Positions 37,055 through 40,690 are shown, counted from the stretch's first letter. The stretch is DNA of 64,000 nt from Elusimicrobiota bacterium (GCA_036574205.1 JAINCQ010000020.1:19688-83687); one strand, 5' to 3'. Made by a program: numbers and translations. Notes: generated by a model from the sequence alone, not told the origin.

Positions 37055-37815
37055 TATTCTTTTATAAGTTTATCAAGTAATTCTGAAGGTATATCAAAAT
37101 TAGAAAAAACATTTTTTACATCATCATGATTTTCAAGCTCATCCATCATAGTAACTATCTTTTCTGCCAGCTCAGCATCTGAAACTTTAACCTCATTTTT
37201 AGGTATCATTGTGGCTTCCGCAGAAGAAACATTTATTTTTCTTTCAATAAGTTTATTTTTAATTTCTTCAACCTTATCAGGAGAAACAAAAATTTCATAA
37301 AACTCAGTATCCGGTTCATTTTTAATATCTTCCGCTCCTACATCTAATGCTATATTAAAAAGATCATCTTCAGAAATAGAATTTTTAGGAACTGTTATAT
37401 ATCCTCTTCTTTCAAAAATCCAGCTAACACAACCAGTAGTTCCCATATTTCCGCCATGTCGTTCAAGTATAACTCTGAGTTCATTAAAAGTCCTATTTTT
37501 ATTATCAGTTGTTGCATCAATCATTACAGCAATACCAGCTGGTCCATAACCTTCATAAGTTATTTCTTCATAAACGGCTCCTGGTATCTGTCCAGTTCCT
37601 CTCATTATTGCTCTTTTAACATTATCAAGCGGCATATTTACTTCTTTCGCGTCATCAATAGCCTTTCTCAATCTTGGATTTTTGTCTGGGTCTCCACCAC
37701 CCATTTTTGCAGCAACTGTTATTTCCTTTATTAATTTTGTATAAATTTTGCCTTTTTTTGCATCATTTGCAGCTTTCTTATGTTTAATTCCAGCCCAATG
37801 CGAATGTCCACCCAT
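37054..37815 (-). CDS. yebC: YebC/PmpR family DNA-binding transcriptional regulator
   Basis: MGGHSHWAGIKHKKA N-terminus and YEGYGPAGIAV, 253 aa. Confidence 0.9.
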   Translation of the reverse strand: MGGHSHWAGIKHKKAANDAKKGKIYTKLIKEITVAAKMGGGDPDKNPRLRKAIDDAKEVNMPLDNVKRAIMRGTGQIPGAVYEEITYEGYGPAGIAVMIDATTDNKNRTFNELRVILERHGGNMGTTGCVSWIFERRGYITVPKNSISEDDLFNIALDVGAEDIKNEPDTEFYEIFVSPDKVEEIKNKLIERKINVSSAEATMIPKNEVKVSDAELAEKIVTMMDELENHDDVKNVFSNFDIPSELLDKLIKE

Positions 37816-37854
37816 AACTGTTCCTCCTTAATTTATCGCAATATCTTACTATAC

Positions 37855-37883
37855 AGACTAATATTTATTTTATAAAATATAAT
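37855..37883 (+). promoter_or_regulatory. Possible sigma-70-type promoter for tRNA-Arg
   Basis: Perfect TATAAT at 37878-37883, 22 nt before the tRNA 5' end, with a weak -35 (AGACTA) at 17-nt spacing. An AT-rich background makes chance matches likely. Confidence 0.3.
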
Positions 37884-37904
37884 CTTATTTTACAAACTGT
37901 CCGT

Positions 37905-37977
37905 GCCCCCTTAGCTCAAAGGATAGAGCAGCTGCCTTCGAAGCAGTCGGTTAGAGGTTCGAGTCCTCTAGGGGGCA
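37905..37977 (+). tRNA. tRNA-Arg (anticodon TCG)
   Basis: Hand-folded cloverleaf: acceptor GCCCCCT/AGGGGGC, D arm GCTC/GAGC, anticodon arm GCTGC-CTTCGAA-GCAGT, T arm AGAGG-TTCGAGT-CCTCT and discriminator A. CCA is not encoded. Confidence 0.9.
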
Positions 37978-38345
37978 TGCTGGTACTGACCAACAGCGGT
38001 AAGCTGTTGCGCGAGGTGAGAACAGCCTTTAGAGCAAAACCTAAACGGTTTTGCGTGCTGTTCGCAAGGCCGCAGTTTGCCTTGGGCTATGCAGGCAAAC
38101 GAGGCGGGGTCGCGCAAGCCGTCAGGGCTATGCGTGACAGAACAGCCTTTAGAGCAAAACCTAAACGGTTTTGCGTGCTGTTCGCAAGGCCGCAGTTTGC
38201 CTTGGGCTATGCAGGCAAACGAGGCGGGGTCGCGCAAAGCCCACCAGGCTTATGCGTGACTCGAAAGCCCGCAGGCAAACTTGGGCATACAGTTTGCCGA
38301 GGGGGAAGGGTTTGAGAAAAATTTTGCAGTGAGCAAAATTTATTT
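37978..38345 (+). ncRNA. Candidate structured RNA or structured repeat block of unknown class, contiguous with tRNA-Arg
   Basis: G+C is 55-60% (33/60 and 36/60 in two counted lines) against about 28% in flanking coding sequence. It has multiple nested perfect helices and ends at the AT-rich hairpin AAATTTTGC-AGTGA-GCAAAATTT (38319-38341). I do not see conserved cores of RNase P, tmRNA, SRP or 6S RNA. Confidence 0.3.
38019..38237. repeat. Tandem direct repeat: 99-bp perfect unit, 120-bp period, two copies plus a diverged partial third linker
   Basis: 38019-38117 is identical to 38139-38237. The 21-bp linker GCCGTCAGGGCTATGCGTGAC recurs in diverged form at 38239-38262. Confidence 0.95.
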
Positions 38346-38374
38346 GTAGAAAAGTTCCTTTTAAATATTAAAAT

Positions 38375-38528
38375 CCCTTCCCCCTTGATGGGGGAAGGTG
38401 AGGATGAGGGTGAAATAATTAAATCTCCTTGCTGATGCTTATGTTTCCTCTCACTTGATAGGAGAAGAATAAGGTGAGGGTGAAAAATAAAATCTCCTCA
38501 CCCTAACCCTCTCCAAAAAAGGAGAGGG
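38375..38528. repeat. Three copies of a small G/C-arm hairpin plus GGTGAGGGTGA-type tail element (two on +, one inverted)
   Basis: E1 is CCCTTCCCCC-TTGAT-GGGGGAAGG+TGAGGATGAGGGTGAAA (38375-38415). E2 is CCTCTCA-CTTGAT-AGGAGAAG...AAGGTGAGGGTGAAAA (38446-38485). E3 is CTCACCCTAA+CCCTCTCC-AAAAAA-GGAGAGGG (38494-38528), the same architecture on the opposite strand. Confidence 0.7.
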
Positions 38529-38665
38529 AATATAACAATTAAACCGTCCCGGAAGGTAATACTCAAAAGTCTGCAGCAAAATATTTAATACAACAAACCC
38601 CATTTTTTTGAATTGCTCATATATTAATGCCTCATAAAACAAGATGTTTTGTATAATATTTTAAT

Positions 38666-40690
38666 ATGAAAAATATTTTAGTATTCTTAATCATAGTCTT
38701 CCATTATTCTTTTTTAACTGCAGTTGAAGATTTAAACAAAATATATGAGGGAGCTGTAAATTCTTGGAAACACGGCAGGGTATCAGATGCAATTGGCGGA
38801 TTTGAATATATTGTTTATAATTCAACAGATGATGATATAACACTCAAGGCAGGAAGGGAACTGGTAACGCTTTTAAATGAAACGAATGAAAACTCTCTTG
38901 CTATCGCATATATAGATAAATTAAAAGCTATTTCCAAAAATGATCCATATCTTGAATTTGAAAAGGGGATTGCTCTTTATTCCTTAAATAAATATAAACA
39001 GGCTGAGGAATCTTTTGATAACATTTTTACTATGACATCAGATGAAGATCTGATATTTTTTTCAAGATTTATAAAATCAATGCTTGAAATGGATTTAAGT
39101 GGTTATGAAAAAGCATTGGATGAACTTCAGACTGTTTATAAAAGATATCCTGCGCTTCTTGCGCCGTCAACATATATGGTTTCTTATCTATATAAAAAAC
39201 TTGGGAAAAAAATGCCAGCTTTAAATTTCTTGAAAGACTCCTTAAAATACGATTCTCAAAACATTCAGGCTTTAATAGATTTAGCGCAAATCTATGATGA
39301 TGCATCTTACTACTTACCTGCCTGGCAGTCATATTTCACATTAAAACAATTAGACTATACAAATCCATATTTTGAAAAAAAATCTAATAAGCTTATAAAA
39401 AAACTTGGGAAAAAACCTGATGAAATATTTTACTGGTCAAGGCTTGGCTGGCCGGTGCATAACGAACCGCTTAAAAACACAAAAAAACTAACACCATTAA
39501 AAATAGGATTATACTGCGATAATTTAAAAAATCTTTCTTACCTTGATTCATTTTATTTTATATCCAACTCAGATTTTGAAATCTATGATAGTGTTTTAGG
39601 TAAAACATTTTCAGGTAAAAAAAATATGCAATATAAAGTTGAGTATATAAAGTCCAACAGGATATATGAACTTAAAGATAACTCAAATTCAAAACTATAC
39701 TCCACACGTGTTAATTTTGAAATAAGACTTAAAGATCCAAATGGGGTTATCCTTATCAAAAACCCATCTATTCTAAAAGATTTCTTTGGGGTTAACAGAA
39801 GCGATAAAGAGGTCTCTAATAAGATAGAGATTATCGTTTCAACAACTGGAATGAAATTAATAAATCATACTTATTTAGAACATATACTCCCATCAATTGT
39901 CTCTTCTATAAAAGGACCAAAAGAAACATATGAGGTTATAAAAGCGCTTACAATACTTGTAAGAACAAAATTAACTAAGGATATAACGGAGAAAAAAACA
40001 TATATACCTGACAATGATGATTTATTTGAATTTAAAGGTTTACAATATGAAAAAGAACAATATGTATCTGCCATGAATGAGACAGCTGATAGTATTTTGA
40101 TAGATAAAAATTCATCTATTTACAATGTTTTTTACTCCATAAACGCAGCAGGAATGACATACTCAAATGTAAATGATAATTCATCAAAACCAGAATATAT
40201 TACGCCATTTTCACTTTTTAAATGGTTAGCATTTGATTTCTTAAAAAAACCAGCATACTCTCTTCCCATAGATCAAACCCAGCTTTCTGAAGCTATATGG
40301 CTTTTGGTTCTTGAACCAAAATGGATTGAAGATAGGATAAATGAAAAGTATAAAGTTGGTAAGATAAAAAACATAATAGTTTTAAAAAGAGATGATTTTG
40401 GTATAGTAAAATCTATTAAAATAGAAGGGACAGCCGCTGATATTGAAATAAATGGAGAAAAGGAGATATCGAGATTTATTTCAGGGGGGGTATTAAGGTC
40501 AAATCTTTTTTTTATAAGACCAATTATGAAAGGCAATTTTCCACGCTTTTTTATTGTAAGAGGTGCAGGAACAGGTAATTTTAAAGGAATGTGTATATAT
40601 GGCGCAAATTACCTTGCCAAAAATATGGGCTATAAATATAATCAAATAATAAGACACTACTTCCCGGATGCAGTATTAAAGGAAAAATGA
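38666..40690 (+). CDS. TPR-containing SpoIID/LytB-family paralog with a degenerate catalytic signature
   Basis: Signal peptide, an N-terminal TPR-like helical repeat region and a C-terminal SpoIID-like region. That region aligns without gaps to the canonical paralog in this window (EHILPSIVSSIKGPKETYEVIKALTILVRTKLTK vs ERYLWGVLGPEMGVSWPIEALKAQAVAARTYTLK) and ends ...GAGTGNFKGMCIYGA...IIRHYFP. Confidence 0.65.
   Translation: MKNILVFLIIVFHYSFLTAVEDLNKIYEGAVNSWKHGRVSDAIGGFEYIVYNSTDDDITLKAGRELVTLLNETNENSLAIAYIDKLKAISKNDPYLEFEKGIALYSLNKYKQAEESFDNIFTMTSDEDLIFFSRFIKSMLEMDLSGYEKALDELQTVYKRYPALLAPSTYMVSYLYKKLGKKMPALNFLKDSLKYDSQNIQALIDLAQIYDDASYYLPAWQSYFTLKQLDYTNPYFEKKSNKLIKKLGKKPDEIFYWSRLGWPVHNEPLKNTKKLTPLKIGLYCDNLKNLSYLDSFYFISNSDFEIYDSVLGKTFSGKKNMQYKVEYIKSNRIYELKDNSNSKLYSTRVNFEIRLKDPNGVILIKNPSILKDFFGVNRSDKEVSNKIEIIVSTTGMKLINHTYLEHILPSIVSSIKGPKETYEVIKALTILVRTKLTKDITEKKTYIPDNDDLFEFKGLQYEKEQYVSAMNETADSILIDKNSSIYNVFYSINAAGMTYSNVNDNSSKPEYITPFSLFKWLAFDFLKKPAYSLPIDQTQLSEAIWLLVLEPKWIEDRINEKYKVGKIKNIIVLKRDDFGIVKSIKIEGTAADIEINGEKEISRFISGGVLRSNLFFIRPIMKGNFPRFFIVRGAGTGNFKGMCIYGANYLAKNMGYKYNQIIRHYFPDAVLKEK

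Follow-up and report, generated by a model that had tools for sequence, protein, structure and literature searches.

What kind of event can make the two arms of a hairpin trade places while its flanks and loop stay as they were, and what does such an exchange say about the molecule that carries it? The question is raised by a 64,000-nucleotide (nt) stretch of DNA from an Elusimicrobiota bacterium (GCA_036574205.1, JAINCQ010000020.1:19688-83687; the whole stretch is called the window below), in which a hairpin at 38269-38305, downstream of a tRNA-Arg gene, is the arm-swapped counterpart of two tandemly repeated hairpins beside it. The source is a metagenome-assembled genome (MAG) of the Elusimicrobiales with 31% GC. 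Our preferred answer, to which we assign a probability of roughly 0.7, is that the swapped hairpin is hairpin 2 (hp2) of a conserved tRNA-derived structured RNA encoded after tRNA-Arg(UCG), and that the swap came about by copying between paralogous hairpins. The RNA family has apparently not been described so far, and the window element is a rearranged member of it.

The arm-swapped hairpin

The two repeat units each contain a hairpin that reads CCGCA-GTTTGCC-TTGGGCTATGCA-GGCAAAC-GAGGCGGGG (38070-38109 and 38190-38229), in which GTTTGCC at 38075-38081 pairs with GGCAAAC at 38094-38100 and GTTTGCC at 38195-38201 with GGCAAAC at 38214-38220. The third version reads CCGCA-GGCAAAC-TTGGGCATACA-GTTTGCC-GAGGGGG, with arms at 38274-38280 and 38292-38298; the exchange of arms with retained flanks and loop, reported in a preliminary description of this DNA, is exact in both sequence and coordinates. 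The repeat unit itself was described there as 99 base pairs (bp) long, but the repeats recur every 120 nt and are identical over 99 nt of that period. Pairing is indeed kept at all seven positions, as had been claimed, but only five of the seven pairs actually change between the unit and third-version stems, the outermost G-C and the innermost C-G being the same pair in both. Both stems in fact comprise 8 bp, with an extra loop-side U-A pair that is not swapped.

When folded, both versions are perfect and stable, the third at -19.3 kcal/mol (z = -3.65). GGCAAAC-N5-20-GTTTGCC was found once in the 64 kb of the window against 0.02 expected occurrences, and the opposite orientation of the 7-mer pair twice against 0.00 expected; since both orientations lie far above expectation, chance does not explain the hairpins. 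Inversion fails on logic, whichever route is taken: a perfect hairpin that is inverted keeps its arms and flips only its loop, so no inversion gives an arm swap. That no inversion had occurred was therefore stated correctly before, although on mistaken reasoning, the reverse complement of arm-loop-arm' being arm-(reverse-complemented loop)-arm'.

A probable structured RNA downstream of tRNA-Arg in Elusimicrobiota

Loci of relatives (numbered L001 and upward) were gathered by way of yebC and of a sequence pattern matching the tRNA 3' end, and each fetched locus with a tRNA-Arg was scanned by script for recurrence of the tRNA 3' part downstream, in either orientation. At no fewer than 11 loci of Elusimicrobiota, tRNA-Arg(TCG) is followed on its own strand by a structured RNA of ~155 nt; homologues of the window element lie in L002, Ga0067045 (L150/L153), L004, L007, L013, L019, L022, L025, L032 and L064. 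The element in the window starts at 37979, right after the tRNA (37904-37978), and it holds the same position in all other members, with a spacer of 6-14 nt between tRNA and RNA in those of high GC. From 5' to 3' its modules are an acceptor-like 5' strand; a hairpin, P1, which occupies the position of the D arm; S5', a strand antisense to the T arm; hp2; hp3; and a copy of the tRNA 3' part, made up of S3' and the acceptor 3' strand.

Even the distant high-GC loci L004, L007, L013, L022, L025, L032 and L064 (YebC identity 54-62%) follow this plan within ~160 nt of the tRNA, with an 8-11-nt reverse complement of their own T loop and T stem ~31-47 nt downstream of the tRNA and a direct copy of the tRNA 3' part at ~120-135 nt. 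Antisense strand and copy vary together with the tRNA from genome to genome (GAGGGTTCGAA with CGAACCCTC in L007, CAGGATTCGAA in L025, GGATTTGAA in L064), and S5' and S3' follow the T-arm sequence of that tRNA (GAGGGTTC, CAGGATTC and CGGGATTT in the same three loci, respectively). The direct repeat of the tRNA 3' end is perfect over 31 nt in L002 and Ga0067045, spans 18-25 nt in L004, L007, L013, L022 and L032, and is a decayed trace in the window; acceptor-like stem and tRNA-3' copy are intact in L004, L022, L032, L064, L002 and Ga0067045. Between the strands, the distant members carry GAGCCGGGGTCGCG ... CGTGAC and the window units GAGGCGGGGTCGCG ... CGTGAC. The junction motifs of the family are GAGsCGGGGyCGCG and CGUGrC, a G·U is conserved in the base of hp3, and the loops CCAGCAGG and GAGCGACGGCGAG are kept in the high-GC clade.

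A plain MAFFT alignment of six distant homologues gave an RNAalifold consensus with the acceptor-like stem, P1, a helix S, and a three-way junction bearing hp2 and hp3, in which 20 of 54 pairs show double changes with pairing kept. Covariation in homologues, which the preliminary description had proposed to examine, speaks for the helix: in the hp2 variable stem, four pairs out of five each have three sequences that are changed on both sides and still pair. A covariance model, R1, was built from the same six sequences and thus without the window; it finds 11 members in 723 kb of related loci, including the window units, L002, Ga0067045, L019 and L064. Within the window it matches 38135-38278 at 45.6 bits (E = 5.5e-9 for the 723 kb) and 38015-38130 at 17.3 bits. 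Across the 11 members, standard pairs fill 92.6% of pair cells as opposed to 32-41% when partners are slid by 1-3 columns, and double changes occur in 39 of 54 pairs and in all five of the hp2 variable stem; none of 500 shuffles reaches the observed values. The hp2 variable stem differs from lineage to lineage (CGCUC/GAGCG, AGCCC/GGGCU, CCUGC/GCAGG, GUUUC/GAAAC and others).

The bias among non-standard pairs points to the molecule that folds. A single G·U, at the base of hp3, hardly varies (it is present in 10 of 11 members), and G·U or U·G cells number 24 against seven A·C or C·A; this excess, together with the near-invariant G·U, argues for an RNA made from the tRNA strand and not for duplex or cruciform DNA. 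The idea that the helix is under structural constraint is thus borne out by covariation in other genomes and not by the swap, and of the two levels previously suggested for it, RNA is favored over cruciform DNA. The earlier conclusion of RNA-level constraint is right, for a reason other than the one given.

In one distant member the pairing partner is of separate note. The downstream tRNA-3' copy of L025 (3481-3500) lacks the acceptor half (CGAATCCTCATTAAGGACC), and the anti-T-arm strand of this locus, CAGGATTCG, still fits the T arm of the tRNA (CGAATCCTG) more closely than it does the copy, a hint that base pairing to the tRNA may be of importance.

Direct repeats of a tRNA 3' end also suggest a DNA-level history, in which the locus would be a remnant of small elements that a site-specific recombinase integrated at the 3' end of tRNA-Arg, with duplicated attachment (att) sites as in cis-mobilisable elements, and the 7-mers would be protein or cruciform sites. 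A perfect 31-nt repeat of the tRNA 3' part brackets a 113-nt insert in L002, two modules stand in tandem in Ga0067045, the hp2 slots of L002 form a direct repeat, presence and absence vary among close relatives, and L044 and L054 carry similar duplications with unrelated inserts. Against this, the same architecture of 150-160 nt returns in lineages that share only 54-62% YebC identity, each of its helices showing compensatory changes; the G·U bias described above is meaningful for a single strand only; and in every member the repeated part of the tRNA begins at the T loop, a constancy that speaks for one old origin. There is no sizeable open reading frame (ORF) between the tRNA and the syntenic flanking genes, although no window-wide recombinase scan was made, and nothing similar was found in viral, phage or plasmid collections, where blastn gave no match and five pattern scans of viral contigs returned chance matches only. 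We regard an integration remnant as quite unlikely, and favor the conserved RNA.

In the two gut Elusimicrobiaceae just mentioned, L044 and L054, the tRNA 3' end is duplicated 130-175 nt downstream and the intervening sequence is different; the duplication in L044 runs ~45 nt past the tRNA end and is a partial tandem duplication. The 3' flank of tRNA-Arg seems to be generally prone to such events.

Nested units inside an older module, and the exchange of arms

The relative L002 (81% YebC identity, no fetched relative being nearer) shows the module in simple form: a 113-nt segment separates the tRNA from GAGTCCTCTAGGGGGCGTGCTGGTTCTAAGA, a 31-nt stretch identical to the 3' part of that tRNA. The segment starts with the hairpin GAAATGC-GAATA-GCATTTC, CGCGAGGACTCGAAAGCCCGCA and GCGAGCT-TAATCATACA-AGCGAGC, and ends with GAGGGGCGG, an AT-rich hairpin and ATTTGTAGGA, which the 31-nt copy follows directly both here and in Ga0067045. 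The latter, a Joint Genome Institute (JGI) contig from a strain near-identical to L002, carries two 143-nt modules in tandem. The window matches L002 at 37979-38016 (first hairpin and CGCGAGG) and again at 38260-38349 (CTCGAAAGCCCGCA, the swapped hairpin, GAGGGG and the AT-rich hairpin; 74% over 98 nt). As these matches lie on either side of the repeat units, the third hairpin is the orthologue of the L002 hairpin and the units sit inside an old module. It had been taken for a third copy of the unit; it is instead the hp2 of a separate, older module that encloses both units.

The 5' part of this core module (37979-38016, plus strand) matches L002, L091 and L149 in position and sequence. It consists of a decayed trailer and acceptor-5' strand (37979-37990), the P1 hairpin CAACAGC-GGTAA-GCTGTTG (37991-38009) and CGCGAGG (38010-38016), the first half of the anti-T-arm strand S5'; P1 covaries across the core and its relatives (CAACAGC/GCTGTTG, AAACAGC/GCTGTTT, GAAATGC/GCATTTC). 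The 3' part (38260-38349, plus strand; alignment A1 with L002) resumes with the second half of S5' and the junction CTCGAAAGCCCGCA (38260-38273), continues with the swapped hp2 and GAGGGGG (38299-38305), and holds within 38318-38349 the AT-rich hp3 homologue AAAATTTTGC-AGTGA-GCAAAATTT, followed by ATTTGTAG. The adjoining 38350-38372 (plus strand, termed R2) is probably a decayed copy of the tRNA 3' part, a weak assignment made by position and by eye from AAAAGTTCCTTTTAAAT as compared with GAGAGTCCTCTAGGGGG in L002. The AT-rich hairpin at 38318-38341 was also considered as a terminator and rejected, being the positional homologue of hp3 in a region with no plus-strand terminator.

The units lie between GAGG and ACTCG of the old module. 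Unit 1 (38017-38139, plus strand) was found by TRF, by a repeat finder and by R1, and contains an S3'-like GAACAGC (38020-38026), an acceptor-5' remnant GCCTTTAG, P1 as GCAAAACC-TAAAC-GGTTTTGC (38034-38054), S5' GCTGTTC (38057-38063), hp2 with its base CCGC (38070-38073) paired to GCGG (38104-38107), and hp3, TCGCGCA..TGCGTGA (38110-38137). Folded alone, 38030-38148 forms P1 and then an S helix that encloses hp2 and hp3 (-57.6 kcal/mol, z = -4.4). In the minimum-energy fold GCTGTTC of unit 1 pairs with GAACAGC at 38140-38146, the first 7 nt of unit 2, which double as the S3' strand closing unit 1. Unit 2 (38140-38259, plus strand), found by repeat finding and covered by the stronger R1 match, differs from unit 1 in the apex of hp3 (38230-38259) and in its last 21 nt, and its S5' has no perfect downstream partner. 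The sequence of the unit S helix no longer matches the T arm of the tRNA. GAACAGC..GCTGTTC was considered as a P1 with an insertion, but the covariance-model alignment makes it the S helix, with GCAAAACC/GGTTTTGC as P1; a kink-turn in the internal loop of hp2 (GA/GCA) was also rejected, since by eye it would unpair two covarying Watson-Crick pairs.

Aligned to the R1 consensus, unit 2 shows the conserved motifs GAGgCGGGGUCGCG and CGUGAC and the conserved G·U. Both units read GAGGCGGGGTCGCG ... TGCGTGAC, keep GAGGCGGGGUCGCG, CGUGAC and the G·U of the family (in UCGCGCA/UGCGUGA), and present P1, hp2 and hp3 in family order. The covariance-model alignment also overturned the views that the units are lineage-specific and that the third hairpin is the ancestral one: the units are nearer to the phylum-wide consensus than the core is. 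The units are only 36-46% identical to every other member, so they are old and not a recent import, and transfer from a sampled high-GC lineage is excluded by the same figures. Further copies, as dispersed repeats of the kind of repetitive extragenic palindromes or miniature inverted-repeat transposable elements would have, were found neither elsewhere in the 64 kb nor, away from the tRNA-Arg site, in ~720 kb of related loci. The units are devoid of both acceptor strands and of the tRNA-3' copy, and the acceptor-like stem and the copy have decayed in the core. As judged from sequence, the window array is best seen as a derived, stripped-down form of the family, a decayed old module enclosing two intact 120-nt units.

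The same observations bear on whether the array is a rearranged pseudogene of an otherwise real family, its perfect stems merely the outcome of recent duplication and template switching. Such a view gains from the loss or decay of the acceptor stem and tRNA-3' copy in the window, from the splitting of the core S5' by the units, from the loss or decay of the element in sister lineages and from the recent origin of the duplication implied by 99 identical nt. It has to contend with units of 58-61% GC in a 31% GC genome whose adjoining tRNA-3' copy has decayed to AT, with the retention of junction motifs, conserved G·U, three hairpins and a co-varied S helix, and with units that are old by their identity to other members and yet still fold. 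We consider a pseudogene unlikely.

An assembly artefact, in which mis-joined repeats of the MAG would have produced the third hairpin or the unit duplication, is extremely improbable. Short-read assembly does underlie the copy number of the units, and Logan contigs from three different runs end inside the element or at its start (L001 1-66, L092 1-13, L149 1-20), which fits repeat-induced graph breaks and makes module copy numbers in short-read assemblies uncertain. However, the third hairpin and its flanks are collinear with the independent assemblies of L002 and Ga0067045, contrary to the recombination artefact considered in the preliminary description; the units differ in their last 21 nt and can be told apart by reads, and a chimeric join would not give an exact arm swap with the loop kept.

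How, then, did the core hp2 come to mirror the units? Compared with its orthologue in L002, the flanks CTCGAAAGCCCGCA, CATACA and GAGGGG are kept and the stem is entirely different; that of L002, GCGAGCUU/AAGCGAGC, has six Watson-Crick pairs and a tandem G·A and still folds. The core stem is the exact reverse arrangement of the unit stem 54-200 nt upstream, and since the L002 stem is unrelated, the core stem was replaced recently. Unit and core share an exact 10-mer, GCAGGCAAAC, and an exact 9-mer, CAGTTTGCC, in opposite slots, which reach 1-3 bases past the arms into the (G/A)CA context, and both hp2 slots are preceded by (G/A)CA-G. Such features fit a template-switch footprint: arms that are exact reverse complements or copies of each other, 54-200 nt apart, with microhomology at the slots.

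It could be held that the swap was instead built up by successive compensatory substitutions under selection for pairing and would itself prove that the helix is selected, as the preliminary description had argued in calling it a complete compensatory exchange. Across the family hp2 does change by compensation, and both hairpins are perfect and stable. Five independent double substitutions would hit the exact reverse-complement arrangement with a chance of only ~4^-7, though, and the shared 10-mer and 9-mer extend beyond the arms in a stem that has no counterpart in L002; we find this route very improbable. The exactness implies that sequence was physically copied between the neighbouring paralogous hairpins, with or without selection, and the swap cannot serve as internal proof of it.

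Under the copying that we favor, a template switch at microhomology, or a conversion, would first have placed the sequence of one arm in the other slot, and the opposite arm would then have been re-templated on the new arm, as in quasi-palindrome correction, to give a perfect stem and an exact swap. The direct repeat AGCGAGC..AGCGAGC formed by the hp2 slots of L002 and Ga0067045 looks like the product of the first step. L013 (GUUUC/GAAAC) and L064 (..GUUUGCGCC/..GCGCAAGGCAAAAAC) share the orientation of the units, and the GUUU-first arrangement is probably the older state. Mönttinen and Löytynoja (2022, PMC8794818) document template switches that introduce multi-base compensating changes into stems at once and sequence turned in place; their mutations resemble the present case in being perfectly complementary, one-event stem changes with a nearby source. 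Their categories, as far as consulted, hold no case in which both arms change places around an unaltered loop, and here two linked events are needed.

Genomic setting, proposed mechanism and known systems

The tRNA-Arg (anticodon TCG; 37904-37978, plus strand) was identified by ARAGORN and by Rfam (RF00005, 70.1 bits) and does not encode CCA; a promoter-like TTATTTTATAAAATATAAT at ~37866-37884 is kept in relatives. The genes queA, spoIID, ruvB, ruvA, ruvC and yebC precede it on the minus strand. On its 3' side lie 340 nt at 53-62% GC, the sole strong GC island of the window, followed by further non-coding DNA and a gene for a 674-aa SpoIID/TPR-like protein. The locus is flanked by syntenic housekeeping genes, with yebC-ruvCAB on one side and the 674-aa gene or a 363-aa gene on the other. 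No plus-strand terminator separates tRNA-Arg from the GC-rich stretch, and none was found in 37700-38800, where the sole intrinsic-terminator match is on the minus strand (38398-38376). The ORFs at 37977-38315 (plus) and 37968-38237 (minus) have no Pfam match above cut-off, and the corresponding frame of L002, by eye, reaches a stop after ~20 codons and is not conserved. Rfam 15, at gathering as well as E-value thresholds, returned only tRNA in the window and its relatives, including a full-length member, with scattered microRNA and small nucleolar RNA noise below threshold; in the window and six related loci, ARAGORN and Rfam searches for tRNA and tmRNA called only the true tRNA.

Several neighbouring features were noted in passing. 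A second structured non-coding stretch, 38355-38560 (fold z = -5.4), comes right after the element and is not repeated elsewhere in the window. It contains a first hairpin, CCTTCCCCC-TTGAT-GGGGGAAGG (38374-38398), whose 5' arm resembles the tRNA 5' end (TCCCTTCCCCCTT versus TCCGTGCCCCCTT); a 70-nt repeat present twice (38379-38415 and 38449-38485, 76% identical), with purine-rich AAGGTGAGGGTGAAA at the end of either copy; and a long imperfect hairpin at 38439-38535. The ATG of the 674-aa gene (38666) lies 8 nt after a TGTATAAT box (38650-38657), and homologues in L002, L095, L096 and L151 have TATTATGATAAATTT right before their start codons; the mRNAs of these genes are probably leaderless or nearly so. 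In L004, L013, L019, L022, L025 and L032 a conserved motif GTAACnATTTTGTAACCAAAAGTTAACC..AACGCAAACA, 30-80 nt downstream of the RNA and in front of the conserved 363-aa signal-peptide/HEAT-like ORF, may be a promoter or 5' leader. Two relatives with 80-81% YebC identity (L093 1-571; L094 1100-1607, minus strand) have a different GC-rich run of ~370 nt downstream of tRNA-Arg, composed of short perfect hairpins such as ATCCTGACC-TT-GGTCAGGAT and CCTCAG-CAAT-CTGAGG, with no similarity to the window element and no Rfam match.

We propose that the RNA originated from a tandem duplicate of tRNA-Arg which would have lost its anticodon arm and in which the T loop would have zipped and expanded. It would be co-transcribed with tRNA-Arg from the conserved promoter; its two ends would form a tRNA-like stack of acceptor and helix, with hp2 and hp3 branching from the three-way junction, and hp2 would be needed as a helix and not for its sequence. 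In full-length members the acceptor-like stack could let RNase P and RNase Z excise the RNA. More speculatively, the middle segment (acceptor-5' and anti-T-arm strands) might alternate between two pairing partners, the 3' part of the tRNA itself and the copy downstream, and so act as a switch; such three-segment pairing could couple maturation of tRNA-Arg to folding of the RNA, or let the processing enzymes release it. Whether the ~155-nt RNA constitutes a previously undescribed functional class that shares a transcript with tRNA-Arg(UCG), and whose middle segment pairs alternately, we see as evenly balanced.

Some points weigh against this account. The 11-member alignment was fitted by the model itself, with the plain six-sequence MAFFT result as its independent check. 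The acceptor-like stem is only 81% paired and is broken in L007, L013, L019, L002 and the window, and may not work as a processing signal but be left over from descent from a tRNA duplicate. The element is missing in L003, L082-L090, L095, L096, L147 and L151 and is decaying in L091; its loss or decay in many close relatives makes it dispensable at least in the low-GC clade, and the copy in the window may be heading for loss. The template-switch path was reconstructed from three unpolarised states in two lineages, and copying requires that the shared loop start TTGGGC be taken as ancestral. Transcription, RNase P/Z processing and any function are what we infer from sequence.

If the family holds, it provides a well-supported structured RNA for a phylum with almost no experimentally studied non-coding RNAs, and a case of a tRNA gene duplicate turning into another RNA, with the anticodon arm lost, the T loop zipped into two new hairpins and a 3' end that is that of the parent tRNA. 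The locus forms a natural series of module multiplication and decay, from full and tandem modules through stripped units to decayed and lost ones. The arm swap and the direct-repeat relative are a candidate example of template switching that reshapes an RNA stem in one or two steps, which bears on the reading of 'compensatory' changes as independent evidence of selection.

Known systems of several kinds invite comparison. Integron attC sites carry R'' (RYYYAAC) and R' (GTTRRRY) boxes and have an integron integrase nearby; GGCAAAC and GTTTGCC, by eye, fit only the AAC and GTT cores, the units have the opposite order and no integrase gene is adjacent, and this assignment was rejected. Integrases leave att-site duplications and cis-mobilisable remnants at tRNA 3' ends. 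As in these, directly repeated tRNA 3' sequence, reaching from the T loop to slightly (a few nt) beyond the tRNA, brackets the insert in members of the family, modules can stand in tandem and genomes differ in presence and absence, but the insert is a conserved structured RNA and not variable cargo, no integrase lies alongside, and the 5' boundary of the repeat is fixed phylum-wide.

The closer parallels are RNAs. YrlA (a bacterial Y RNA), the tmRNA domain and mascRNA-type elements cut out by RNases P and Z are tRNA-like domains of non-tRNA RNAs, and they likewise have an acceptor-like end pairing, a discriminator base and a stacked second helix. The likeness of the RNA described here extends to an encoded CCA in L022 and to its place, as of a second tRNA, in the putative tRNA transcription unit, at a spacer of 6-14 nt. 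It differs in that it has no T loop, the 3' half of which is paired in a 9-bp helix; no anticodon arm, tag reading frame or pseudoknots were detected in it, and the ARAGORN and Rfam models of tRNA and tmRNA miss it; and its 3' part is a literal copy of the 3' end of the neighbouring tRNA, tracking each genome. Regulatory RNAs from tRNA 3' external transcribed spacers (ETS), of the type of 3'ETS-leuZ in E. coli, are short, lineage-restricted, base-pairing sponges. They too lie in a tRNA 3' trailer and are released by tRNA 3' processing, as is putatively the case here, whereas the RNA of Elusimicrobiota is ~155 nt long, contains four or five helices that covary and is conserved between families of the phylum.

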